Source: a virus
Taxonomy: Duplodnaviria; Caudoviricetes
DNA length: 64,000 nucleotides
Strand: one strand, 5' to 3'
IMG/VR virus record: IMGVR_UViG_3300037067_027684
Location: 160,001-224,000 of that record
Positions 873 through 64,000 of this stretch are shown piece after piece. The notes beneath the pieces were generated by a model. It made no database searches. It worked only from the letters and a program-made list of their open reading frames with translations, and had not been told where the DNA came from. How positions within the stretch are numbered: the first letter of the stretch is position 1; each line of letters begins with the position of its first letter. A program made the position numbers and the translations under genes.

Positions 873-1223
873 TCAAAGACCGTGAGAAGAAATACCTGCC
901 ACAAAGAGTTCTTCAAGCTTTTGGAAGTTATCTCGTTCAAGCCTGATGACCTTTCGGGCTTCATCCAGGGTGGCGAGGACTGCTTCGTTGGGGTTTGCGT
1001 AGCTATGGAGTGTCCAGCGACAATCGCCGCTGCAATGTCCTCGGTATCCGGCTAGACAGACGAAGCCTTGTGGCTGGCTCGGGTAGACGGTGATTTCTTT
1101 GTTGTCGCCTAGATAAGCGGCGTAGTGCCAACCAAGGTTTTCCCAGACGTGGGGTTTCCAGGGTTTGCCTCCTAGTTGCTTGCAGAGCAAGTCTGCTGCG
1201 ACTTGTGCGTCAAACTTTTCCAT
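873..1223 (-). CDS. hypothetical protein
   Basis: RBS + ATG, tiles with neighbours. Confidence 0.7.
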   Translation of the reverse strand: MEKFDAQVAADLLCKQLGGKPWKPHVWENLGWHYAAYLGDNKEITVYPSQPQGFVCLAGYRGHCSGDCRWTLHSYANPNEAVLATLDEARKVIRLERDNFQKLEELFVAGISSHGL

Positions 1224-1232
1224 TTTAGTCTC

Positions 1233-1589
1233 CTATGGATTTGGGTCTGCGAAATTGAACTGTATTTCTTTGCGGTTTGCCCGTTCGGGATTAGATTTCC
1301 ATCTTTCTTTGAAGTACCATTTGAAGGCGTGTTGTTCATCGTCAAATTCCAACCCTTCACCTTCAGCATCTTCAAAGATCCAACCTTCCAGACGGCTAGA
1401 ATATTTGGTGCAGGGTCCCAAACCTGTGTCGTCCATAAACAAAATTCGATCCCCGATGATGGACTCGACACCTTCAAGGAGGTCGCCCCATTTGATTTGC
1501 TCACCTTCTAGGAGGAAGATGATTTGTTTGTTGATTAGTTTGGCTGTGAAGCCTTTTCGATTGAGTAGGTCGATTTTCTCTTTGGTCAT
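1233..1589 (-). CDS. hypothetical protein
   Basis: AGGAG RBS + ATG. Confidence 0.7.
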   Translation of the reverse strand: MTKEKIDLLNRKGFTAKLINKQIIFLLEGEQIKWGDLLEGVESIIGDRILFMDDTGLGPCTKYSSRLEGWIFEDAEGEGLEFDDEQHAFKWYFKERWKSNPERANRKEIQFNFADPNP

Positions 1590-1631
1590 TTGAATCTCCT
1601 AAATCGGATATTCCGGCATTGGCTCCTTAAT

Positions 1632-1682
1632 TAGGGGTCGGGCGGTAAAACCGCAACAAAGGGGATGCCCTTCCGACCCCTA
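1632..1682 (-). ncRNA. candidate three-way-junction structured RNA
   Basis: TAGGGGTCGG/CCGACCCCTA closing stem encloses two small hairpins; directly upstream of RBS and minigene MPEYPI*. Confidence 0.45.
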
Positions 1683-1698
1683 GGGGTTTAATTTCTTA

Positions 1699-1860
1699 TC
1701 AGGCTCCGCAGAGGTCGTCAAGGTATTCGTCTTCGAACTCCCAGATGGAAGTCTGGTCGAGTCCAAACTTTTGGATCAGGAATCCACCAATCTCCAGGAG
1801 TTCAGATGCGGCGAGGTTGGGGTTGTGGAGCAGGAGCATTCCGATTAGGCGATACCACAT
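1699..1860 (-). CDS. small hypothetical protein (53 aa, not in ORF track)
   Basis: AAGGAGG RBS; MWYRLIGMLLL...DDLCGA*; downstream of twister-like RNA. Confidence 0.6.
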   Translation of the reverse strand: MWYRLIGMLLLHNPNLAASELLEIGGFLIQKFGLDQTSIWEFEDEYLDDLCGA

Positions 1861-1908
1861 GTTTCGTCCTCCTTGAAGTTGTCCCTAACGGGATGTTAGG
1901 GAATTAGT

Positions 1909-1973
1909 CTGGACTTGAGACCAGTCTGGCGGTTGCCAGGGCCTTAAGCAGGGTCGCAACCCTGCTCTCTCGG
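1909..1973 (-). ncRNA. twister-like ribozyme (P5-type permutation), copy A
   Basis: CC-GAGAG-[AGCAGGG/CCCUGCU]-UAA-GG-CC-[CUGGC/GCCAG]-[CUGG UCUCAAGU CCAG]; GAGAG/UCUC covaries with GAGGG/UCCC of other copies. Confidence 0.8.
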
Positions 1974-2101
1974 TTTTGAGTTTTGACCTGTGTGTTCGGC
2001 CTTTAGGACCATCGCCGCATAAAATTTGCCTCCTCTTGAAATCAGACCACCTTCTGAAAAGGTCGGGCCAAAAGATGGCCCTTCTCTATGCGGTAGGATA
2101 A

Positions 2102-2131
2102 TGGCACTCGCTCAGAAGTATGGGGATATTA
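2102..2131 (-). promoter_or_regulatory. candidate phage promoter motif, copy 1
   Basis: TAATATCCCCATACTT-N3-AGCG-N2-TGCCA, nearly identical to 41773-41803. Confidence 0.45.
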
Positions 2132-2139
2132 CTTTGGTA

Positions 2140-2388
2140 CTATGTTGATTGAATCCAAATACGTTCAATATCTGCCCAATCATAGAAATGGTTCATAGCA
2201 CGATTGAACGCCGCTTCAGTCTTGGCCTTCTTGAATCGTTCGATAATTTCAACGGGGACGCGTTCATTCTTGAGGACTTCGATAGCTTTTGCTGCTACCT
2301 TTGGGATTTCTTCCAATTCATTCTCAGGGTTGTAATCGTCGTTATTGATGATGCCTTTGAATTGGATGGTGCGTCGCCAGTTAGGCAT
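2140..2388 (-). CDS. hypothetical protein
   Basis: AGGAG RBS + ATG. Confidence 0.7.
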   Translation of the reverse strand: MPNWRRTIQFKGIINNDDYNPENELEEIPKVAAKAIEVLKNERVPVEIIERFKKAKTEAAFNRAMNHFYDWADIERIWIQST

Positions 2389-2638
2389 TCTTAATCTCCT
2401 TTTTCTTGATCTTCTTCACTTTGCCATTTTCATCATAGGTTACTTTGGTCTTGCCGTCTGTGGCAGTTAGTCCACCACATTGTTTGGCTACTTTCTCTTT
2501 TCCTCGCTTCCTCGTAGGCTGCTCTATCCGCAAATGTGAAGTCAACGCATTCGTGGAGTTTGCAGTTAGAGCAATGGAGGTTGGCGTACGGTCGCCATTT
2601 GCCGTTTCTACATCTGTGTGCGATGAATCCTGCGTCCA

Positions 2639-2839
2639 TTAGTGACAATCCCAACCAGCTTTGACCCCTTTGATTTTATTCAGCGCCTTTTTAGCTCCTT
2701 CTTTAGCTATGGTGGCTAGTTCATAGGAGGTCAAGCCAGATGTGCTTTCAATATCCAAACTCCATTCCTCGTTATTATCAAATTCAGATTGACGAACGGA
2801 GATAAACAGGTCAAATTTCTTGACTTTCTTCTTTTTCAT
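2639..2839 (-). CDS. hypothetical protein
   Basis: ATGA overlap with upstream gene. Confidence 0.6.
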   Translation of the reverse strand: MKKKKVKKFDLFISVRQSEFDNNEEWSLDIESTSGLTSYELATIAKEGAKKALNKIKGVKAGWDCH

Positions 2840-3030
2840 TTGCGCCCTCCAGCCTGATTGGGCCTTTTAACCCAACGTTTGAATGTGATTTCGACTAAGG
2901 CAATACCACACTCCTTAAAATTGTGCTTCCTATTGATTGTCTTAAGGTTTGGGTAAACTGTGGTGTCAGTACTTTCTAGTTCGTCAAGGAAAGCAATACC
3001 ACACATGTAGCCGGTCTTAGTCTTCTTCAT
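2836..3030 (-). CDS. hypothetical protein
   Basis: RBS, overlap tiling. Confidence 0.6.
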   Translation of the reverse strand: MKKTKTGYMCGIAFLDELESTDTTVYPNLKTINRKHNFKECGIALVEITFKRWVKRPNQAGGRK

Positions 3031-3253
3031 TTGTGTCCCTCAAGCGTTTGAATCGTGGATTGTCGTCCTTGGTGACTTCGACACTCTTAACAACTGTGTC
3101 GTCATCGCATTCATCGTAGTCGTTGAAGTCAATGGCATTGGCTTGGACGAGTCGATCTACCTTATCTGCTGCTTCAAGATCATTTTCTGCTCTGGTCCTG
3201 AAGAAGCGTCGGCGGGTAAAAGTCCGCTCGACAATTACATCAAAGTCTTTCAT
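3017..3253 (-). CDS. hypothetical protein
   Basis: GGAGG RBS + ATG. Confidence 0.65.
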   Translation of the reverse strand: MKDFDVIVERTFTRRRFFRTRAENDLEAADKVDRLVQANAIDFNDYDECDDDTVVKSVEVTKDDNPRFKRLRDTNEED

Positions 3254-3559
3254 GGTTTGCCTCCTTTGTTGGAAGTTGACATCTGGAATATCAACGCAGT
3301 GACGCTCTCCAAGGAGCGTGTTGGTCGCTCAAAGATTTCGGGTAATCCTTGCTTACGGATGTTCTCCATCTGTTTGTCCGTAAACCCCGACTCTGACTCA
3401 GCAATCTTAACCGCCCATCGAAATAAGTCTAACTGAACGTCATCGGGAGTCTCAGCAGGAATTGTGTCTGATCCGGTTTGAAGTTCGATTTGCTTCCATA
3501 CTGGCCCAAGCTTTACGCCACTTCGGAGGGAAGCTATCCCCTGTTAGTAACCATCCCAT
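3250..3559 (-). pseudogene. probable frameshifted small gene
   Basis: Open frame 3250-~3543 lacks an early start; removing one base of the C-run at 3538-3541 would join it to ATG 3559. Confidence 0.35.
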
Positions 3560-3561
3560 TT

Positions 3562-4107
3562 TCATTTGTTGTACCACTCCCAAGTATGGACTTGAAGAAA
3601 GTCACCATTATCCAATGGCGCAAACAATCCGATGATTTGGTGCGAACCATCACTAGGGCGGCAGAAACCAGTGTACCCAGTCCCAAGCATTATTTTGTTG
3701 ATGTTTGGAATATGGTTCAAGTCTTGATAAGATGGCATCATTTTCTCATGCCAATCCAGATCGAAGGCATAATCAAAACTTGAGTCGGTGTAAGGCTTAT
3801 GCCGATACCTGCGAACGTCGTCAGTCCAGATGGCGACTGGCACTACAACCCAGAATTCGAGTCCAGTTACTCCGCATTCGTAACGGAGGTTGAGTTGTTC
3901 GGCATCTACGCCTAGATTCCTGAGGCTCTCCCATGGGTGTTCCCAAATGGCGCTGGCTGTGAGTCTTTTCTTGCCAGGGATTGTTTGGGCACCAACTGGC
4001 AGGATGTTCTTGAGTGATGTCAGCCATTCGTTGATGTCATTCTGTCCCCAATTCAGGTCTCCACATTCGGGCTTATAGGGGATTTTTGGTTTTACGAGCT
4101 TTATCAT
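3562..4107 (-). CDS. hypothetical protein
   Basis: 181-aa ORF, tiling. Confidence 0.7.
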   Translation of the reverse strand: MIKLVKPKIPYKPECGDLNWGQNDINEWLTSLKNILPVGAQTIPGKKRLTASAIWEHPWESLRNLGVDAEQLNLRYECGVTGLEFWVVVPVAIWTDDVRRYRHKPYTDSSFDYAFDLDWHEKMMPSYQDLNHIPNINKIMLGTGYTGFCRPSDGSHQIIGLFAPLDNGDFLQVHTWEWYNK

Positions 4108-4247
4108 TGATCGTCACCTTTCCCTTAGCCAAGGCTTTGTCCAATTCCCAAATGATTGGGCCGATTTCTGTGAGTTTTTCGTATGGCGACATTTCCTTTG
4201 ATCTGAGGATTTCGGTGCAGTAGTAAATCTTCTTTTCGAAACTGTCT

Positions 4248-4613
4248 TTATGGACATTCATTTTTGATCCTTTCTAGGATAGGTCCTGAGGTTTCATACC
4301 AGGGGTAGAATCCGGAATCATCGCCTGTGAAGACGGTTCGTCCTGAACTATCCTGGAATCCTTTGGCTCCCCAACGGTCAATGATTGGTGTCCATTCGGG
4401 TTTCTCTTCGTCAATTATATGTTCGAAGAGGGTGTTGTAGCGGGACGCCAGCCCTTCGGCATCATATTTTGGTCCATCTAGACCGTCATAGAAGGCATAA
4501 CCTATCTTCTTGGCTTTACGGAGGGCTTTCATAGCTTTGGTTTTGAAGCAGACATCTGCGAAGTGGTAGATGGCGATTGGGGCTATGATGTCGAATTCTT
4601 GATTATTGGTCAT
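4248..4613 (-). CDS. hypothetical protein
   Basis: AGGAG RBS, ATGA overlap. Confidence 0.7.
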   Translation of the reverse strand: MTNNQEFDIIAPIAIYHFADVCFKTKAMKALRKAKKIGYAFYDGLDGPKYDAEGLASRYNTLFEHIIDEEKPEWTPIIDRWGAKGFQDSSGRTVFTGDDSGFYPWYETSGPILERIKNECP

Positions 4614-4897
4614 CTTGGTTCTCCTTTGATGATCAATCGTCCATCTTCCTTGCGGATTACGTGGCCTGTGATCAATTCACCAATTTCAGCTAGAATCTTA
4701 AACGATTCCAAGCCATTGCGCCCGAAGTGCCACAATACTCCATCTTCTTCGATTATTCCACAGATGGAGGTTTCGACGACCCTTTTTACTTCTGTGGCTA
4801 CGGCTTCTGGATCGTCTCCTTCGATGCAGTAGTGATGCCTTTTGGTAGTATCTTCTTTTCTGTCACAGATAATTCGGAATCGGTGGATGTTGGTCAT
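4610..4897 (-). CDS. hypothetical protein
   Basis: start MTNIHRF overlaps upstream TGA. Confidence 0.6.
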   Translation of the reverse strand: MTNIHRFRIICDRKEDTTKRHHYCIEGDDPEAVATEVKRVVETSICGIIEEDGVLWHFGRNGLESFKILAEIGELITGHVIRKEDGRLIIKGEPR

Positions 4898-5181
4898 TTG
4901 ACTTCCCTTCCGCAGGAGGACTGCAATGGTGTAATGGTCCAAATGATGAGGGGTTCATTCGAAAGTTCTGGGAACTGTTTAGAACATTCTTTGCCTGCCA
5001 TAATTGCGACATAATCCCTCTTGATTTTGAGCCTACAAGTATTATGAAACTCTTTGAGGAATTCTTTGGCTTCTCTAACTGCGAATTCTTTAGCTTTTTT
5101 GCGAGTGAACAATCCGAAGACATTGCTATTGTTCGCTGAAGCTGATTCGACTACAACCACATATTCACTGTTGCTTTTCAT
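4894..5181 (-). CDS. hypothetical protein
   Basis: AAGGAG RBS before MKSNSEY. Confidence 0.6.
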   Translation of the reverse strand: MKSNSEYVVVVESASANNSNVFGLFTRKKAKEFAVREAKEFLKEFHNTCRLKIKRDYVAIMAGKECSKQFPELSNEPLIIWTITPLQSSCGREVK

Positions 5182-5384
5182 CCGAAGCTCCTTCGAAATC
5201 CAGAGTGGTTTCTTCATCGTCCACTTCAACCGAATACCCAATTTGTCGTAATAGGAATCGAACATCCCTTCTAGAGTACAACTCTCTACAAGCTTCGACA
5301 GCATCCTGCATATTCTTTGTTTCTGAATCTTTCTCGATTTCAACATAACCAGTCATGGTGATTTTGAATTTAACCCTAAACATT

Positions 5385-5702
5385 TCACCAGTTTTCATCT
5401 TCACCATGCTCCTTTTCAGTCCAAGGAATTTTCACCCAAGCAGAAACCCAACACTCCTTAGTGTCAAGATAAGGATCAATCGTCGGGTCATTATCGATCT
5501 GGATTGATTCAGTTTGATAGAGTTTTTGTGCTATCTCGACTGCGATAGCTTGCCGTTCTGTTCCCAGTTCCTTTAACTCCCTTCGGACTCGACGTGCTAA
5601 ACCCTGAAGGTGCGTAAAGATATCACCGTCAGGAATCAGATCAAGAAGTTGTTGTGCTGTTTCACGGTTCATTTGGATGACAATGTTAGAGGGCTGATCC
5701 AT
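5385..5702 (-). CDS. hypothetical protein
   Basis: AAGGAG RBS before MDQPS. Confidence 0.6.
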   Translation of the reverse strand: MDQPSNIVIQMNRETAQQLLDLIPDGDIFTHLQGLARRVRRELKELGTERQAIAVEIAQKLYQTESIQIDNDPTIDPYLDTKECWVSAWVKIPWTEKEHGEDENW

Positions 5703-5879
5703 GTTTGGACTCCTTATAGGTTGTGGTTGAATCGCCACAACACAAAATGGTCACGGAGGTATTCTTTGAATTCTTTCAATGCTTGGTCTTTGCATTGGTC
5801 ATGTGGACGGCTGGGATCGAGGTAGGCAAGTGATTTGGCTCTATCCTCGATTACATCCGACATGATCTCAGTCACTTCG

Positions 5880-6269
5880 TTAGCTTTCGGTCTCATGTAA
5901 TCTCCTTAAGCAGTCGGCCAAACTCTTGGGGGAGGTGACATCGACGGCAACCATTTCTTCACCAAGCCAACCAACCACGAGTTTCGTGGTTAAGAGTCCA
6001 TCAAGTACTCCCTTAGACCAATATTGGTTGACATAATATTCAGTATGACTTTGATCACGACCAATCACCAATACTTGATTCGCAACTGGGTAATTCTCAG
6101 TGGTTGAGTCAAGAAACGATTTCTGATCTGTAATCAGTGGTGTGATAATTAGCGAACCCAAAGCTTTCACATCCTTGATATCGCCATGCTTCTTGATGAA
6201 ATTGATAACCTTCTTTAGGTGGGCTAGATTCTTGTGTTTGGGTGCAAGGATTTGGATTGTTAGGAACAT
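5880..6269 (-). CDS. hypothetical protein
   Basis: abuts def stop codon. Confidence 0.65.
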   Translation of the reverse strand: MFLTIQILAPKHKNLAHLKKVINFIKKHGDIKDVKALGSLIITPLITDQKSFLDSTTENYPVANQVLVIGRDQSHTEYYVNQYWSKGVLDGLLTTKLVVGWLGEEMVAVDVTSPKSLADCLRRLHETES

Positions 6270-6803
6270 TCACTTCTCCTTTACATGGTCAATGAAGAGC
6301 TTTCCGGACAAGTGATCCACCTCATGTTGGTAGACTCTTGCTTCCCAACCCTCTGCTTCAAAGCTTAGGGGTTCACCTTTAATGTTTAGGCCATTAACGC
6401 GAATTTTCATGTAGCGTTCGACTTCATCGTGCCTTCCAGGGACGGATAGGCATCCTTCGTGTTCGCGCATTTTAAGGGCGACCAATACTTCTATTGCGGG
6501 GTTGATGATCGCTTTGAATTGTGAGGGTCCACTCAACATGGAGGGGTCACCTGTTGGGTCAACGACAATGACTCGGAGTGGAATTCCTGCTTGGGGTGCT
6601 GCTAATCCTACTCCTTTCTTGTGGTACATTGTCATCTTCATTCGCCTGACAAGCTCCTCCAATTTCATGACTTTTTGCTTGCCTTTGTGATTGGTGAAGG
6701 CGACTTGTCCAGTCTGAATTTCCGCTAAGGAAACTTCGCGGCTGGTCTGCCTCAAAATTGGGTTGGGTAGAGTTACGACCTCAAACGGCTCTGTTGGCTG
6801 CAT
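6270..6803 (-). CDS. def: peptide deformylase
   Basis: All three PDF motifs: GVGLAAPQ, EGCLS, QHEVDHL; RBS before ATG 6803. Confidence 0.95.
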   Translation of the reverse strand: MQPTEPFEVVTLPNPILRQTSREVSLAEIQTGQVAFTNHKGKQKVMKLEELVRRMKMTMYHKKGVGLAAPQAGIPLRVIVVDPTGDPSMLSGPSQFKAIINPAIEVLVALKMREHEGCLSVPGRHDEVERYMKIRVNGLNIKGEPLSFEAEGWEARVYQHEVDHLSGKLFIDHVKEK

Positions 6804-6949
6804 GTGTTCTTTCTCCTTTCTCCACCGTCCTTGTGGCGTTTCGTTGCCTCTATAGGGAGGTGTCAATATGTGCTTAGAGCATTTGTACTTCTAATACTTA
6901 GTGGTTTGTATCAAATTTAGACAGTATTTTAAATTGGTTGTTAGTAATT

Positions 6950-6957
6950 TAAAAATA
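6950..6957 (+). promoter_or_regulatory. candidate late-promoter motif TAAAAATA
   Basis: Just upstream of RBS of counter-oriented gene; also at 8132, 8749, 55463 (minus). Confidence 0.4.
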
Positions 6958-6977
6958 GTTTAAGGAGGATTAGAGCC

Positions 6978-7853
6978 ATGAGACTAATTCTAGTGCTGGT
7001 TCTCGCCTTGATGTGCGGTTGTGTGAAGCCGACTGCTAACCCTGATGGTGAAATAGCCACCCCAACTAAAAAAGCACTAATAGTTGGGATCAACACTTAT
7101 CCTGGGGCACCCTTATCTGGCTGTGTCAACGACGCTAATGATATGAAGGATTTCTTGATTAAGAATTATGGTTATAGGGACAGTGAGATTAAGATGCTTC
7201 TAAATGATAAGGCTAAGACTGCCGATATTATTGATGGGCTTATATGGCTTACTCAAGACGCGAAAGCCGGTGATAAGCGAGTATTCCACTATAGTGGACA
7301 CGGCGCGGAGTATGCTTATGAGACTACTGGTCAGCCAGGTAATATGAACCAAGTTATTTGCCCCTATGACTTTGATTGGACTCCAGGTCACATGATTATG
7401 GATATTGATTTTGCTAAGATGTTTAAAGAAATGCCAAATGGAGTCATCTTCAATTGGGTTAGTGATTCTTGCTTCTCTGGTGATTTGACTAAGGAGCTTC
7501 CGAAGAATGGGTTGAAGATTGTCTCAAAGTCTTATCCTAACGTTCCCGAGAAGATTGCCAATAGGGTTCGTTTGGCTAAGGCTGCGAAGAAGCCTCGTGG
7601 GATGGTAAATGGTGTGTTGGATGTTGGGTACGTGTCTGGTTGTAGGTTCGATCAGACTTCTGCTGATACTGAGGATGTGTCTGGTAGGCCATGTGGCGCT
7701 TTGACTCATTTCTTCTTGGCTAACTTGGGTCGGAATTTGACTGTTAGTCTGAGAATGGTGGTTACTTTGACTGATGAGTCGTTAGCCGCCAGAGGTTACG
7801 AACAGGTGCCGCAGGCGGAAGGTGCTAGGATTGATAGGGCTTTTCAAGAATAA
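6978..7853 (+). CDS. metacaspase / peptidase C14 with lipoprotein-type signal peptide
   Basis: KALIVGINTY, LSGCVNDA, HYSGHG (His), DSC (Cys), GALT; N-terminal hydrophobic stretch then MCGC. Confidence 0.9.
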   Translation: MRLILVLVLALMCGCVKPTANPDGEIATPTKKALIVGINTYPGAPLSGCVNDANDMKDFLIKNYGYRDSEIKMLLNDKAKTADIIDGLIWLTQDAKAGDKRVFHYSGHGAEYAYETTGQPGNMNQVICPYDFDWTPGHMIMDIDFAKMFKEMPNGVIFNWVSDSCFSGDLTKELPKNGLKIVSKSYPNVPEKIANRVRLAKAAKKPRGMVNGVLDVGYVSGCRFDQTSADTEDVSGRPCGALTHFFLANLGRNLTVSLRMVVTLTDESLAARGYEQVPQAEGARIDRAFQE

Positions 7854-8115
7854 TTTCAATTCCTGGCATTGAGTTACGCAACCAACTTATGGCTTTGGTT
7901 GCGTCTAGAATTCCATCTGTGATTGCTGTGTTTACGATTCCTATTGCTTTCTTACCAAGTACGTCTTTTTCTTCTTGTGAGGTTGTTTGAATCCAATGTT
8001 GTCTTATTTCTGCGAGCATCATTAGAATTCGACTGTAGGCGTTAGGGTCTACGTTGGGTGCTTTTAGGTCGAATTCTACTATTAGTGCAAGGTTCAATTT
8101 TTGGTCGAAGTTCAT
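7825..8115 (-). CDS. hypothetical protein with N-terminal FDxKLxxAL motif
   Basis: GGAGG RBS, MNFDQKLNLALIVE. Confidence 0.65.
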   Translation of the reverse strand: MNFDQKLNLALIVEFDLKAPNVDPNAYSRILMMLAEIRQHWIQTTSQEEKDVLGKKAIGIVNTAITDGILDATKAISWLRNSMPGIEIILEKPYQS

Positions 8116-8147
8116 GATTGCCTCCAACCATTATTTTTGCTATTTTG

Positions 8148-8744
8148 TTATTGTATTCTTGCAGGCTCGGTCCAGATTTGTTGTCCTAAATTTAGGGAAC
8201 CTGGTTTAATTATTTCATTAACATAACCATTAATCATTTTATAAATACCAGTCATTTCTGATATATTGACATCTCTTAATATTCTAAGAGCGCAATAATT
8301 TGGGTCATGCATGTATTTGAGGTACAATTTACTCAATATGTTGTCTTCTTCGTGGACTCCATGTTTGGAGATATAATCGAGTATTTTTGGATGAATTGGA
8401 TGAGATGGCCATTCTGTTTTTCGCTTTTTTATATCGACATTTTTGTAAAATCCTTTTTCTGGGTTTGAATCAGCATGTTTTGGTATTTCTTCGTCATCTA
8501 ACCAGAGGAATTCGTACCCTTCTGCCCCCAGAGAATTGGGTGGAATTAATATCTCAAACAAATATGTTGGATTACCATGGTCATATGCGCCATCTGCCGT
8601 CTTTGCTACCCATGGTTTCTTAATTTTTCTACTTTTTACGATTGCGGAATAGGTACCTTCATTAACTCCTACCCAATAGGGTCCAGCTAGATGTTCTTCA
8701 ATTAACAATTTAAGACGAGAATTAAGTTTTGTCTCTAAGCTCAT
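8148..8744 (-). CDS. hypothetical protein (AT-rich, possibly leaderless)
   Basis: 198-aa ORF; CAAAAATA 4 nt before ATG and no RBS. Confidence 0.7.
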   Translation of the reverse strand: MSLETKLNSRLKLLIEEHLAGPYWVGVNEGTYSAIVKSRKIKKPWVAKTADGAYDHGNPTYLFEILIPPNSLGAEGYEFLWLDDEEIPKHADSNPEKGFYKNVDIKKRKTEWPSHPIHPKILDYISKHGVHEEDNILSKLYLKYMHDPNYCALRILRDVNISEMTGIYKMINGYVNEIIKPGSLNLGQQIWTEPARIQ

Positions 8745-8942
8745 GTTGTATTTTTGCTATATTGCTACCCATTGTTTGGTTGCGATTTTGGTTAGAATAG
8801 CTTTCTTCTGCATGTTCTGCATCATTTCCTCATGTTTCTTGTGCCCGTAAGATAATCCGGAGTTGAATTTAGTAATCCATTTACTTAATTCTTTTTCACT
8901 CAGATTACTTGGTGGTATTGCGCAGTGGAATAATAAGATCAT

Positions 8943-9638
8943 TTATCGGCTCCGTTCGTATTTGTTGACAATATCGATGAGTCGGCGTTGAACTTTACCG
9001 TTGACTTGGAATTCTTTGTAGATTGGTTCTACTCCGGTTTTGATGCGTTGTGGGGCGACAGCGCCACTATATCTCCAGGTATAAACGTCTCGGTATCCCG
9101 TAATGATGCGGTGGTACCAGAGTCCTTTACGTCGGGCGTAGGTTTGGCCTTCGATTACGGTTACTTCTGCCACGAGTTTTTGGTGTGGTACTCGAACGCC
9201 TTGTTCTTTTACGTAGTAAGTCTCGAATTCTTGTGAGAAGCAGGATGGTTTTCGGTGTTGTTTCTTCCAGACTCTTCCGACTTTGCGGAGGATTCCGTTG
9301 GTGTCTACGAAGAATTTGTTCCATTCGTATGGGCCGGTTTGTTGTGGTGCTTTTGGGTCTCCTACGAGTTTGCTTGTAAAGAACCATTCGGGGTATTGGT
9401 TCAGGTGAGATGGGATTTTCTGGATGACTTTCTTTCAGGGTTTTCCGATGTTGTTGTTGAGGTAGCGCAGGAGTGGTGCGTAGCTGTATCCTGCGGGGTG
9501 TACGGTGTCGCGTGGGCGCATTCTTTCGCGGCTTGGGGAGTTTTCCCATTGGTTTTTGGCGTACAGGTTGTTTAGGCGGGCGTAGCCTTTTTCAGCGTCT
9601 TTGTTTTTTGCGCATTTTGGTGAGTCTCTTAGGCTCAT
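8943..9638 (-). pseudogene. gene interrupted by in-frame TGA at 9435-9437
   Basis: ORFs 9435-9638 and 8943-9173 are in one frame joined by 87 open codons; context NIGKP*KKV. Confidence 0.6.
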
Positions 9639-9999
9639 TGTGGTCTCCTTTCATCTCAAATTCTGCTAGTGCTAGAACTGAACAGGATGGACACAACATT
9701 TGTGGATCTTTACCATATTTTGTCCAACTCCTTGCTCCTTTGTTTCCGCAAACATATGGGCCGTTGAGGTATTCACAATTCATATTTCGATTATCCAGCC
9801 TTCTGGATTCTTCAGGAATTCCGCTTGAGATTTCCTGTCTTTGCCCATCAGAAACCAACCACTTTTGGTGCCTTTTACGAAGAAAATTACGTGTTTTGCG
9901 GCTTTGGTTCTGTTGGCTTTACTGAGTAGTTCAAAGGCTTCTTTGTAGTTTTTGCGTTTGGCGATTACAAATTCGGTGAATAGGCAAATTTTCTTCATG

Positions 10000-10260
10000 T
10001 TATTCTCCTTTCTCCAGTTTGATCCACCAGCATTCTGATCCCCATAGAGTAGTTCCATCGTCCAAAGTTATACGTATTCTCCCTTTGATTTCTTCAGCGA
10101 ATCCTTTCTTACCGACGTGGGGTTTAGATTCTGGCGGAGTTCTGGCTACCAGATATGGCTTTTTGCCGCCTTTGGGGCGTAGGGCTAATCCGTCTGGGTC
10201 GATGACTTTGCAGCGGCATGGCACCCAGTCACTACCGGCTTGTTTCTTTGGTTTCTTCAT
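10000..10260 (-). CDS. hypothetical protein
   Basis: GAGG RBS + ATG. Confidence 0.65.
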   Translation of the reverse strand: MKKPKKQAGSDWVPCRCKVIDPDGLALRPKGGKKPYLVARTPPESKPHVGKKGFAEEIKGRIRITLDDGTTLWGSECWWIKLEKGE

Positions 10261-10362
10261 TTTATCCTCTCACAAGTTGTTGGATTATCGTTCCTATGAC
10301 AATTGCCAATACTGCTAGTGAGAGTGTCGAAATCATAATTAGGTCGATGGTTTCTATTTTAA

Positions 10363-10710
10363 TCATTTAAGTGCTTCCTTTGCTTTTGCTGCGATTATGC
10401 TGAAGTCGTGGCCATTGGTGGAATCGAGATGGAGTTGTTGTGCTGTGACGATTGAGACATTGTATTCCTTCGCCACTGCTTCGCAGGCTTCTAGGATTTT
10501 CTTGAGAGTTTCGTATTTGGCTAATTCTTCGTCTCGATAGGGTCCGAGTTCAATGCTGCGAGGCCAGTCGGAGATGTCATAGGTTCCTAATTCGATGTGG
10601 ATGTCTCCTTCTTGGTCGAAGTAGACATTCATTACGTAGCTGCTGCTTTTGTCGGCTCCTGTGATCTTTTTGAGTTTGAGGAAGATTTTATGAATTTCTG
10701 TCCAGGTCAT
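10363..10710 (-). CDS. hypothetical protein
   Basis: tiling ORF. Confidence 0.65.
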   Translation of the reverse strand: MTWTEIHKIFLKLKKITGADKSSSYVMNVYFDQEGDIHIELGTYDISDWPRSIELGPYRDEELAKYETLKKILEACEAVAKEYNVSIVTAQQLHLDSTNGHDFSIIAAKAKEALK

Positions 10711-11083
10711 ATGCTTGCCCTCGTGTTGTCATCCACTTTCGGTAGACATCTTCTACACAATCCGTTGGCTTCACTTTGACTAACGTTTCGTTGAACTTCA
10801 TCCAAACATCTTCTTCTACTGCTCTTTTGACGAATTGGATAACCTCGTCGGTAGCTTTGCCAAATTCTTCTCCAAAGTTTGGGGTCACAACCCACTCCAT
10901 ATTATCGTTTAGATCGAGAGATGCAAACATTGGTTTGAAGGTGTTCAGATAATCTACGTCAACTCGTGGGAATAGTAGTCTCTTGATTCCATCTGGGGTG
11001 AGTTTGGTTTTAGGTATTGGTGCTGTGACATTGGTTTGTGTTAATGTTTCTCCAATGTCTAGTGTTCTGTCTCCTAGTTCCAT
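10688..11083 (-). CDS. hypothetical protein with N-terminal ELGDRTLD tag
   Basis: MELGDRTLDIG; weak similarity to 11093-11419 (EDxWxKFN). Confidence 0.75.
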   Translation of the reverse strand: MELGDRTLDIGETLTQTNVTAPIPKTKLTPDGIKRLLFPRVDVDYLNTFKPMFASLDLNDNMEWVVTPNFGEEFGKATDEVIQFVKRAVEEDVWMKFNETLVKVKPTDCVEDVYRKWMTTRGQAYDLDRNS

Positions 11084-11092
11084 GTTATTCTC

Positions 11093-11419
11093 CTAGATTG
11101 TGTCGTTGGTTGAAATCCAGTCATTATAATAAGCGTAAGTATCAAGTAATGGGTCATCATTAAGGTCAATTCGAAGCATACATCTGTTGAACTTTAACCA
11201 TGTGTCTTCACCTGATTCTCGTGCATAGATTCTGCTATTCCGGACTGCTTCTAGAATTGGTGTGCCACCTAATGGTTCAAGGATGTGCTTGCCGTTATCG
11301 AATATGATTTGGTATAATCCTAACCTAGTCAGCGTTTCTCTACTCGCGTAGAATTTACGCTTTATGGGTTGGGGTTGTGGTGGTACCCCAAGGTCCAATG
11401 TTCTATCGCCTAGTTCCAT
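11093..11419 (-). CDS. hypothetical protein with N-terminal ELGDRTLD tag
   Basis: MELGDRTLDLG. Confidence 0.75.
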   Translation of the reverse strand: MELGDRTLDLGVPPQPQPIKRKFYASRETLTRLGLYQIIFDNGKHILEPLGGTPILEAVRNSRIYARESGEDTWLKFNRCMLRIDLNDDPLLDTYAYYNDWISTNDTI

Positions 11420-11633
11420 TTAAGTCCTGCTCTTTAGCCAGTGTGGGAAGAAAAGATTTTTCATTAGGAGATCTTTTAACTCCTTGTCATTTACCTTTCT
11501 TTTAAGAGCTTCTTTAATCTCAAGACTGATTTGGTTACTGAATAACATAGAATAGCCTTTTTCATCTGTGATTAGATAGCCGACACAATCTCCGATTGAG
11601 ACATCTGTTAACCGGAACTTCTTGCTATTAAGT

Positions 11634-12080
11634 TTAAGATTGCGTGTCATGTTTTGCCTTTTGTGCCTTCCCAAATGCGGCCCATTCCTTACATTTGGTG
11701 AGGGCTTCTTCGCGGGTCAAGCCTGTAATATAGTACTGTTGTTTCCACTCCTTCCAGTAAACTTCCCTAGAATGAAGCTTAACTCGCCACTCTGATTTGC
11801 GGTTTACATTCCGCCAAAATTCTCCATACCAATTTGACTTATCAGCAGCCGCCCAGATAGAACCAGTGAAGTTAAGATTATTAATGTGGTCATCTCCGTT
11901 CACATCTCCACGGAGGCAGACTCCTTTGTAGACTTCGTTGACCATATTTGCGTAACTTATTTGTTCATTGAGATTTTCTAGTTGGCCTGTGAGTTTCTCG
12001 AACTTCTTTTCGAGATTTTGATGCTTCTGTTTAAGCGTTTTCTTTTGTTTAAACAGTCGTAGGAGTGTGGCGTTAGTCAT
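11634..12080 (-). CDS. hypothetical protein, N-terminal coiled coil
   Basis: GAGGA RBS before MTNAT. Confidence 0.6.
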   Translation of the reverse strand: MTNATLLRLFKQKKTLKQKHQNLEKKFEKLTGQLENLNEQISYANMVNEVYKGVCLRGDVNGDDHINNLNFTGSIWAAADKSNWYGEFWRNVNRKSEWRVKLHSREVYWKEWKQQYYITGLTREEALTKCKEWAAFGKAQKAKHDTQS

Positions 12081-54877: not shown

Positions 54878-54950
54878 CAGGACTTGGGACCTGTCTCTTT
54901 CCGGACTGGAAAGAGAGTTCCTTACAGAGGGAATCACCCTCTGCCCTCGG
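54878..54950 (-). ncRNA. twister-like ribozyme, copy B
   Basis: CC-GAGGG-[CAGAGGG/CCCUCUG]-UAA-GG-AAC-[UCUCUUUCC/GGAAAGAGA]-[CAGG UCCCAAGU CCUG]-RBS. Confidence 0.85.
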
Positions 54951-55443
54951 TCTCATCCGGCTCCAACTCACGCTCACGATCAATAAGCCTCTGATACAAC
55001 GGATGAACCTCAGGCTCCACAGAACTAGTCACCGGAACCTTAGTCCCAGACGGAACCTTGCCAGTAAAGTAAAAATTCGGATCGCCATTCCCAATAAAAG
55101 CATCCTCATCCTCAAACGGCAAAGAACCACCAATAGAACTCCGATCAGCACTTGAAAAACCAGTCCACACCCCAATCGAACCATCCCTCAACAACAGAAC
55201 CTCAGACCACTCACCAATATCATTAACAGATTTTGCATTCAAAACCTGCTGAACATCCGCATCTCCCTCACTAAACCCATAATTCTTCACCATATTCGCA
55301 GCCACCAACTTCTTATACAAGGGTAACGCAGCTTCCTCATTGTCAAAAGCAATTGCATAAGGAGATTCATCCATCTCATCAACAACCACAAATCGACCAC
55401 CAGTCATCAGCGCCTCATCCAGTTTCTTGTCAAAATCAGCCAT
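54934..55443 (-). CDS. hypothetical protein with N-terminal FDKKLDEAL motif
   Basis: GAGGAGG RBS; stop codon lies in the P1 loop of ribozyme B. Confidence 0.7.
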   Translation of the reverse strand: MADFDKKLDEALMTGGRFVVVDEMDESPYAIAFDNEEAALPLYKKLVAANMVKNYGFSEGDADVQQVLNAKSVNDIGEWSEVLLLRDGSIGVWTGFSSADRSSIGGSLPFEDEDAFIGNGDPNFYFTGKVPSGTKVPVTSSVEPEVHPLYQRLIDRERELEPDETEGRG

Positions 55444-57629: not shown

Positions 57630-57702
57630 CCTGGACTTGGGACCAGGACCCTTTCCACCGTGGAAGGGTGGCCTTACGGGGAGTCAACCTCCCCGCCCTC
57701 GG
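57630..57702 (-). ncRNA. twister-like ribozyme, copy C
   Basis: CC-GAGGG-[CGGGGAG/CUCCCCG]-UAA-GG-CC-P3-[CCUGG UCCCAAGU CCAGG]; begins right after stop codon at 57703. Confidence 0.85.
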
Positions 57703-58014
57703 TTACCGAACAGCATGAATCTCAAACCCCTCAACCGGCACATAAACCTCACGAGTCCTAAAAGACAACGCATGCTGCCACCCATCAACATAAGGGACGC
57801 AAACATCCTGCTTCTCCAACCTGTGTAGAGCCTCCTTCGCCTCATCGTTATTCTCATCCCGCACTTCAGAACCGAGAACCAACTCCAAATCAGCAATAAC
57901 CTCGTTCGCCTCCTCCTGAGTGCCAACAACCACCAAATTGCCGGTGTCAGGCGCATTCCCATCGTAGTCACCGTAAACCGCAACCTTCTCCTCACAGACA
58001 ACCTTCTTACCCAT
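57703..58014 (-). CDS. hypothetical protein
   Basis: AAGGAGGT RBS. Confidence 0.7.
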   Translation of the reverse strand: MGKKVVCEEKVAVYGDYDGNAPDTGNLVVVGTQEEANEVIADLELVLGSEVRDENNDEAKEALHRLEKQDVCVPYVDGWQHALSFRTREVYVPVEGFEIHAVR

Positions 58015-59702: not shown

Positions 59703-59770
59703 TCTGGACTTGGGACCAGACCCACTTTCAGTGGGGGCCTTACACCCCAAAGGGGAGGGGTGCCCTCGGC
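59703..59770 (-). ncRNA. twister-like ribozyme, copy D
   Basis: GCC-GAGGG-[CACCCC/GGGGUG]-UAA-GGC-C-[CCCACU/AGUGGG]-[UCUGG UCCCAAGU CCAGA]. Confidence 0.85.
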
Positions 59771-62502: not shown

Positions 62503-62571
62503 CAGGACTTGGGACCTGTGAGCTTAAATGCTCAGTTCCTTACAGAGAGGTTTTAGCCTCTCTGCCCTCGG
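62503..62571 (-). ncRNA. twister-like ribozyme, copy E
   Basis: CC-GAGGG-[CAGAGAGG/CCUCUCUG]-UAA-GG-AAC-[UGAGC/GCUCA]-[CAGG UCCCAAGU CCUG]-RBS; starts 1 nt after stop codon. Confidence 0.85.
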
Positions 62572-62572
62572 T

Positions 62573-63632: not shown

Positions 63633-63759
63633 CCAGGACTTGGGACCTGGTCGCTTTCCGGTGTGGAAAGCGAGTTCCTTACAAGGGAGAGGGATGACTT
63701 TGGGCACCCATGTGTTGATGGGCTTTGCCGTTAGTTCTTTCGCTCTCCGTTGCCCTCGG
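63633..63759 (-). ncRNA. twister-like ribozyme, copy F (51-nt P1 loop)
   Basis: CC-GAGGG-[CAACGGAGAG...CUCUCCCUUG]-UAA-GG-AAC-[UCGCUUUCC/GGAAAGCGA]-[CCAGG UCCCAAGU CCUGG]-RBS. Confidence 0.8.
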
Positions 63760-64000
63760 GACTTCCTTAATGCGTTTTCACTTTTCTGCCCTCTGTGCCT
63801 CTTTGCTCCTAAACTCACAAAAAGAATTCAAAATGTTTTGGAGTTTACTGAGTGCCCGGTGGTCGTGTCACTTGTTCACCCCTTTCGGTTTGCTTCGCTT
63901 GCTTAATTTGTGGGAATAGGGAGGGGGGCACTGCAGTGCCCCACCAGTGAGGCGAAGCTCCGCCACAAGCGGCCTCTAGCCTCAACTAAAAAGGCAGACC

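Follow-up and report, generated by a model that had tools for sequence, protein, structure and literature searches.

Does the RNA encoded at positions 1909-1974 of this phage sequence represent a new kind of self-cleaving ribozyme or a further member of a class already known, and what might it do for the gene that follows it? The window examined here is the whole stretch of DNA that was analysed, 64,000 nt in length, and corresponds to bases 160001-224000 of the 246,684-base genome record of a 247-kb uncultivated phage. The twister class, with which the RNA was compared, comprises thousands of members. The original prediction placed a sixth, distant ribozyme copy at this site, drew attention to a compensatory change in its T1 pseudoknot, and raised the possibility of an undescribed variant resembling twister-sister.

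The identity of the RNA was established by covariance-model searches. The type-P5 twister class (RF02684, clan CL00120) was described by Roth et al. 2014, as cited in PMC5408937, from which the published twister consensus used here was also taken. The RF02684 model aligned to the minus strand over all of its positions (1-58 of 58) with 33.8 bits, and the match covered 1909-1974, one base more than the predicted extent of 1909-1973. The E-value was 0.003 in a search of the window and 1.4e-5 in a search of the local stretch. The curated cut-off, 37.6 bits, exceeds this score by 3.8 bits, a near miss that does not exclude membership. Our own model R1, a covariance model built from three of the window copies, gave 40.3 bits (E 1.6e-7). 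The Rfam model begins with P2 and ends with P4, and the RNA follows on the minus strand the order CC (P2), GAGAG, P1 hairpin, U-A-A, GG (P2), CC, P3, and P4 with the loop UCUCAAGU; in the alignment, stems P1, P2 and P4 thus stand in the P5-permuted order, with the chain ends at the position of P5. Residues A1945, A1944, G1971, A1970, U1920, C1919, C1917, A1916, A1915 and G1914 all equal the RF02684 consensus, and every conserved position of L1 and L4 is retained except for the covarying pair and the last base of L4. Across the copies in the genome, the paired fraction in the R1 alignment was 98.5% for P1 and 100% for both P2 and P4, and a core-motif descriptor returned five matches in the window against an expectation of 0.00 (none in 100 shuffles). 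The RNA therefore adds a member to a known ribozyme class, and its arrangement has precedents among phages.

Each part of the ribozyme could be assigned from the RF02684 alignment together with the published roles (PMC5408937). The L1 3' strand, GAGAG, occupies 1967-1971 (-), where G1971 aligns with the catalytic guanine and A1970, G1969, A1968 and G1967 constitute the T1 strand. The P1 hairpin of 7-8 pairs (1947-1966, minus strand) is present in the minimum-energy fold, and 7/7 of its pairs vary on both sides among the copies; it would form the 3' end of the upstream cleavage product. The predicted scissile bond, U1946/A1945 (1945-1946, minus strand), lies in the conserved U-A-A that follows P1 in the RF02684 alignment, and both the A that is 3' of the scissile bond and the catalytic G have roles in twister cleavage (PMC5408937). 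Next comes GGCC (1940-1943, minus strand), which supplies the P2 3' strand (G1943, G1942) and then the T2 strand (C1941, C1940). P2 consists of C1973-G1942 and C1972-G1943, and these C-G pairs are 100% paired across copies. The optional P3 hairpin (1926-1939, minus strand) is an insertion relative to the Rfam model and lacks the TTTCCA..GGAAA box found in most clustered copies. In the RF02684 alignment the P4 stem pairs 1921-1924 with 1909-1912 (-) and encloses the L4 loop at 1913-1920. The T2 contact keeps its inner pair, C1940-G1914, and has C1941.U1913 as its outer position.

In crystal structures, T1 is formed by the four bases after the catalytic G of GAGGG, which pair with CCCA of L4 to give three Watson-Crick pairs and an A.A contact (PMC5408937). 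The same pattern is found here, as G1969-C1917, A1968-U1918 and G1967-C1919, plus A1970 opposite A1916. The prediction that this copy differs from the others at both partners of one pair was borne out: it has GAGAG at 1971-1967 and UCUCAAGU at 1920-1913, whereas the five other window copies have GAGGG and UCCCAAGU, so that A1968-U1918 replaces a G-C pair. That the paired substitution reflects selection on structure was likewise supported, and the middle pair is never mismatched in the alignments. MAFFT misaligned the copies in P1, and pairs were therefore counted in the structure-aware alignment to R1. Among the ten copies in the genome, the T1 middle pair is G-C in eight, A-U in two and unpaired in none; in the alignment of 33 distinct phage twisters, the position is occupied in 31, of which 26 are G-C, five A-U and none unpaired. 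The pair next to it is also A-U in one of the 33. As a whole the T1 helix is 100% paired, with changes on both sides. In the ten-copy structure, 96.6% of cells are paired as compared to 78.5% in shuffles, and 10 pairs change on both sides; sliding the register by 1-3 columns drops pairing to 25-53%, and the 33 distinct phage twisters agree.

The A-U version is not peculiar to this locus. A second copy in the genome (225716-225792, 39 bits and above the cut-off) is also GAGAG/UCUC, as is a twister in contig L012, which reaches 43.9 bits on RF02684 and so passes the cut-off, and the same A-U pairing occurs in at least 17 twisters of other phage and metagenome contigs. The first scan of viral contigs admitted all four purine/pyrimidine combinations, and only matched ones came back. 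A scan of metagenomes for the A-U form gave 20 further loci, which yielded 13 more GAGAG/UCUC twisters and one GAGGG/UCUC. Among the copies together with the phage and metagenome twisters, no A/C mismatch was found at the middle pair and a G.U intermediate only once. The RF02684 consensus prints both changed positions in lower case, as variable (GAGgG, UCcC), and the change consequently supports the known fold and adds nothing new to it. The double change is ordinary covariation inside the twister class that keeps the known fold, and it re-confirms a pseudoknot already known from crystal structures. As for the suggestion that the ends of this copy would be less compatible with those of the others, the cleavage ends are chemically identical in all copies; an A.C mismatch would arise only in a hypothetical hybrid that joins the 5' half of this copy to the L4 of another.

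The six copies of the original prediction correspond to those in the window; the genome as a whole holds ten, with four beyond the window edge, and all lie on the coding strand. The Rfam model detects nine, eight of them within 12 kb (214.9-226.3 kb) and the copy at 1909-1974 apart by 53 kb; R1 recovers all nine and a tenth. The six window copies all align at full length to RF02684 (1-58 of 58) on the minus strand. Four other copies in the phage score above the RF02684 cut-off, three of these in the window, at 54878-54951 (40.0 bits), 59704-59770 (38.0 bits) and 62503-62572 (44.3 bits), all on the minus strand. The remaining two window copies lie at 57631-57703 (-), with 33.0 bits, and at 63634-63760 (-), where a long P1 insert accompanies scores of 23.7 bits with Rfam and 48.7 bits with R1. 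The tenth copy, at genome 224587-224677 (-) (L003:372-462), is detected by R1 only (36.2 bits) and has a long P3; its L4 is UCCCAAAU, in which the conserved G of T2 is gone, and to judge from these letters it may be inactive. In three clustered copies, a long upstream open reading frame stops inside the P1 loop of the ribozyme (window 54936-54938 and 57686-57688, and genome 225074-225076, all on the minus strand), a placement in which a terminating ribosome would occupy the 5' half of the ribozyme.

Comparison among the copies bears on the origin of the double substitution. Over its 5' part (P2, L1, P1, UAA, P2 and T2), the copy at 1909-1974 shares 83% identity with the copy at genome 226261-226335 and 66% with the next best; no copy is especially close to its 3' part. 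Since this nearest paralogue is GAGGG/UCCC, with a G-C pair, the double substitution arose within the phage's own ribozyme family or came by exchange within it.

Beyond T1, the original prediction listed several departures from the textbook twister, and each of them was observed. P2, described there as 2-3 bp, has two Watson-Crick pairs and an A.C at the third position; the RF02684 alignment deletes one P2 column per side, and P2 does not reach the four Watson-Crick pairs of the published model (PMC5408937). The stated absence of a P5 stem agrees with our finding that the 16-nt flanks pair no better than shuffled controls, a result common to all ten copies; both P3 and P5 are optional in the published twister model (PMC5408937). 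L4 does end in AAGU, its last base being U and not C, and other phage twisters with AAGU reach up to 55.7 bits on the Rfam model. UAAGGCC was found in three window copies, as proposed. In the copies with AAC, the A after P2 pairs with the final U of L4, and T2 therefore covaries with the consensus (AC with GU vs GC with GC). In the UAAGGCC copies, including that at 1909-1974, the partner is C, which leaves T2 with one Watson-Crick pair and a C.U.

This C.U outer state of T2 (CC/GU) is present in 4/10 genome copies and in 27/63 collected twisters from 17 loci, where the 63 distinct twisters were parsed from the phage genome and fetched loci by search patterns that bias the sample to loops ending AAGU. 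Members of the CC/GU sub-type that were checked score 27-38 bits on the Rfam model, mostly below the cut-off. The form with short P2, UAAGGCC and AAGU is thus a recurrent phage sub-type that usually scores under the Rfam cut-off. How such a form might perform is suggested by the CHiTA screen of about 2,600 natural type-P1 twisters, in which imperfections in P1, P2 and P4 and variation in P2 length were tolerated, while mismatches in the two pseudoknots reduced cleavage (PMC11662667). We equate PK1 of that work, the two-pair pseudoknot, with T2. Given that pseudoknot mismatches were costly in the type-P1 screen, the C.U mismatch in T2 implies that the activity of the copy at 1909-1974 may be reduced.

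An intergenic gap of 279 nt (1861-2139) contains the copy, which is on the coding strand and 48 nt upstream of a start codon with a strong ribosome-binding site. That site, AAGGAGG (1868-1874), precedes a 53-residue orphan gene that begins with ATG at 1860 and runs to 1699, so that the pair spans 1699-1874 (-); the gene has no Pfam or PHROG family and no relative in viral contigs. A hairpin of 8 pairs (1882-1902, minus strand), which appears in both the minimum-energy and centroid folds, separates the ribozyme from the ribosome-binding site. On the other side, an 82-residue gene (2140-2388, minus strand) terminates 165 nt short of the ribozyme. Its product matches a single family, phrog_6318, of unknown function, and has no Pfam family and no relative in viral contigs. 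As both flanking genes are orphans, the context gives no clue to the purpose of the ribozyme. Upstream of the ribozyme, the gap contains a terminator-like hairpin and a minigene. The latter, of five codons (2003-2020, minus strand; M-R-R-W-S-stop), has a strong ribosome-binding site, stops 29 nt ahead of the ribozyme, and lies inside a multibranch fold in which its start codon is paired. Folding of the 279-nt gap is more stable than that of shuffles (z -3.2), and its minimum-energy fold includes P1, P4 and the downstream hairpin. An exact-stem search of metagenome contigs for the copy at 1909-1974 returned nothing.

A separate 62-nt element (window 1626-1687, minus strand) directly follows the stop codon of the 53-residue gene and folds as a three-way junction (-37 kcal/mol, z -2.3). 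An exact copy (62/62) lies 25 kb off at genome 136221-136282 (+), where it too immediately follows a stop codon and is oriented with local transcription. The element has no Rfam family and no viral-contig homologue; five pattern matches in viral contigs were rejected as unrelated inside the stem.

The clustered copies are arranged more tightly. In the eight that are detected by Rfam, a ribosome-binding site and start codon follow within 32 nt, mostly 6-14 nt, and several have the upstream gene's stop codon immediately ahead of the ribozyme or within its P1 loop. Twister arrays directly ahead of ribosome-binding sites were also found in the unrelated phage contigs L016, L128, L150 and L159, with ten twisters in 5 kb of L128 and seven in 3.5 kb of L016, and some of the collected contigs carry pistol or hammerhead type II ribozymes beside twisters. 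Such arrays resemble previously reported phage-related arrays of hammerhead, twister and pistol ribozymes (PMC6765202, PMC10085705) in having multiple ribozymes on the coding strand, interspersed among small phage genes. The copy at 1909-1974 differs from them in being solitary, 53 kb from its own array, and in having a longer structured leader instead of lying against the ribosome-binding site. A broad descriptor scan of viral contigs gave mostly chance matches and few loci with real twisters, and was not used for statistics.

Several of the collected loci have features of their own. L159 (Ga0209777_10001612) contains, at about 1090-12080, at least nine twisters with the P3 box TTTCCA..GGAAA as in most of the phage copies, one of them being the G.U intermediate GAGGG/UCUC, and probably comes from a relative in which ribozyme and box are combined in the same way. 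In three large phage contigs of 171, 216 and 75 kb (L014:8680-8746, L021:3365-3435 and L015:332-393), a GAGAG/UCUC twister precedes a conserved gene by about 115 nt, and the structured leader that separates them is conserved as well; L014 and L021 also carry a type-P1 twister of 63.5 bits, slightly below its cut-off. The metagenome contigs L150, L152 and L153 hold arrays of five twisters in which neighbours differ in T1 (GGG/CCC, GAG/CUC, GGA/UCC), and the L152 copies are not reported by Rfam at E <= 1.

From these arrangements a course of events can be proposed for the locus. During transcription, P1, P3 and P4 would form, and L4 would dock on GAGAG via T1, with its A-U middle pair, and on the CC after P2 via T2. 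The backbone would then be cut between U1946 and A1945, with G1971 and A1945 aligned to the catalytic guanine and adenine. Cleavage would leave a cyclic phosphate at the end of the P1 hairpin on the upstream RNA and a 5'-OH on the downstream RNA, whose 85-nt leader of P3, P4 and the 8-pair hairpin would precede the ribosome-binding site and the 53-residue gene. Judged from its position, the most likely purpose of the ribozyme is to uncouple the message of this gene from the upstream RNA and to give it defined, protected ends. We consider it probable that the RNA at 1909-1974 (-) is a genuine type-P5 twister that cuts at this bond and separates the two messages in this manner. Bacterial and phage ribozymes have been proposed to process polycistronic messages into segments, each with a stability or translation of its own (PMC6765202). 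The locus can also be compared to RiboJ, a satellite-RNA hammerhead with a hairpin before the ribosome-binding site, which raises transcript and protein levels (PMC6206723). Both have the layout of self-cleaving ribozyme, hairpin, ribosome-binding site and gene, and in both a short, defined 5'-OH leader would be left after cleavage. The present copy is natural and of another ribozyme class, and while an effect on expression was shown for RiboJ, the likeness here is one of layout.

Two other couplings between the ribozyme and translation were considered and rejected. Unmasking of the ribosome-binding site by cleavage finds no support in its predicted unpaired probability, which goes from 0.58 to 0.49 for the copy at 1909-1974; over nine copies, predicted exposure on cleavage goes up in five, down in three and stays level in one. 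Pairing of L4 with the adjacent ribosome-binding site was discarded too: the copy at genome 225716 has UCUC in its L4, yet its GAGGGAGG site is unchanged, so L4 and the ribosome-binding site do not covary.

Other readings of the RNA concern either its class or its activity. The original prediction raised an undescribed variant between twister and twister-sister as a possibility, and the features on which this was founded (short P2, absent P5, the AAGU end of L4, and UAAGGCC) are all real, as is the fact that sub-type members often fall under the Twister-P5 cut-off, at 27-37 bits. This reading is now very improbable, being already largely refuted. A high-scoring full match to the Twister-P5 model, named in the prediction as the outcome that would speak against novelty, is essentially what was found: the match is full length, and its score alone falls short. 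All six window copies align at full length, three of them pass the cut-off, and other GAGAG/UCUC twisters pass as well; other twisters with AAGU reach as much as 55.7 bits. The likeness to type-P5 twisters extends through the order of P2 strand, GAGNG, P1, U-A-A, P2 strand, T2 dinucleotide, optional P3, and P4 with UCNCAAGN, and includes all catalytic and loop residues and a T1 of three Watson-Crick pairs and A.A. The differences comprise a P2 of two Watson-Crick pairs over three positions instead of four, a T2 with CC opposite GU, a last L4 base of U rather than C, and unpaired flanks with no P5. The RNA vaguely resembles twister-sister in its stem layout and, like it, has a conserved A beside the cleavage site (PMC5408937), but the twister-sister model RF02681 has no match in the whole 246,684-base genome at E <= 10. 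Moreover, twister-sister cleaves the opposite strand and is without evidence of a pseudoknot (PMC5408937), whereas here T1 covaries as a twister-type pseudoknot and the U-A-A cleavage-site motif lies on the twister strand. Membership in the twister-sister class was accordingly rejected. We regard as unlikely a further view, in which the short form is a distinct, under-annotated structural sub-type whose weakened P2/T2 stack would make cleavage slower or conditional and so tune message release for each gene.

With respect to activity, the copy could be a decayed relic, inactive or weakly active, which reached its distant site by duplication from the array and has since become dispensable. Its score under the Rfam cut-off, the C.U and A.C at the outer T2 pair and third P2 position, the distance of 53 kb to the other nine copies, and the absence of the P3 box common to most array copies would all fit such decay. 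However, P1, P2 and P4 are intact, and the only two departures from the core consensus of the array (GAGGG, UCCCAAGU) are the two partners of a single T1 pair, which compensate each other, a result that random decay would rarely yield. The combination of CC and AAGU, moreover, recurs in 27 twisters at 17 loci, some of them conserved among three related large phages; this argues for a maintained form and makes a relic improbable. Somewhat less credible still is an active twister with a regulatory role, in which cleavage would be gated by the structured leader together with the five-codon minigene or a protein, or in which the T1 variant would prevent mis-pairing with other copies. The minigene is well formed, has a strong ribosome-binding site, and lies just upstream in the multibranch fold, and arrays elsewhere do mix the T1 versions GGG, GAG and GGA. 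Its stop codon, however, is 29 nt before the ribozyme and out of reach of a terminating ribosome, and no systematic alternation of T1 versions is seen: three copies in L149 are GAG, and eight in the phage genome are GGG. The reading that we prefer remains that of an active type-P5 twister that processes the message.

What deserves to be retained is that phage contigs commonly contain the short-P2/CC sub-type, most members of which escape detection at the Rfam cut-off. Because this cut-off misses the copy at 1909-1974 along with many other short-P2/CC phage twisters, counts of phage ribozymes are underestimated. The succession of ribozyme, hairpin, ribosome-binding site and small gene provides a natural parallel to engineered insulators, and would accord with the long-standing hypothesis that ribozymes of phages divide long messages into units of independent stability.
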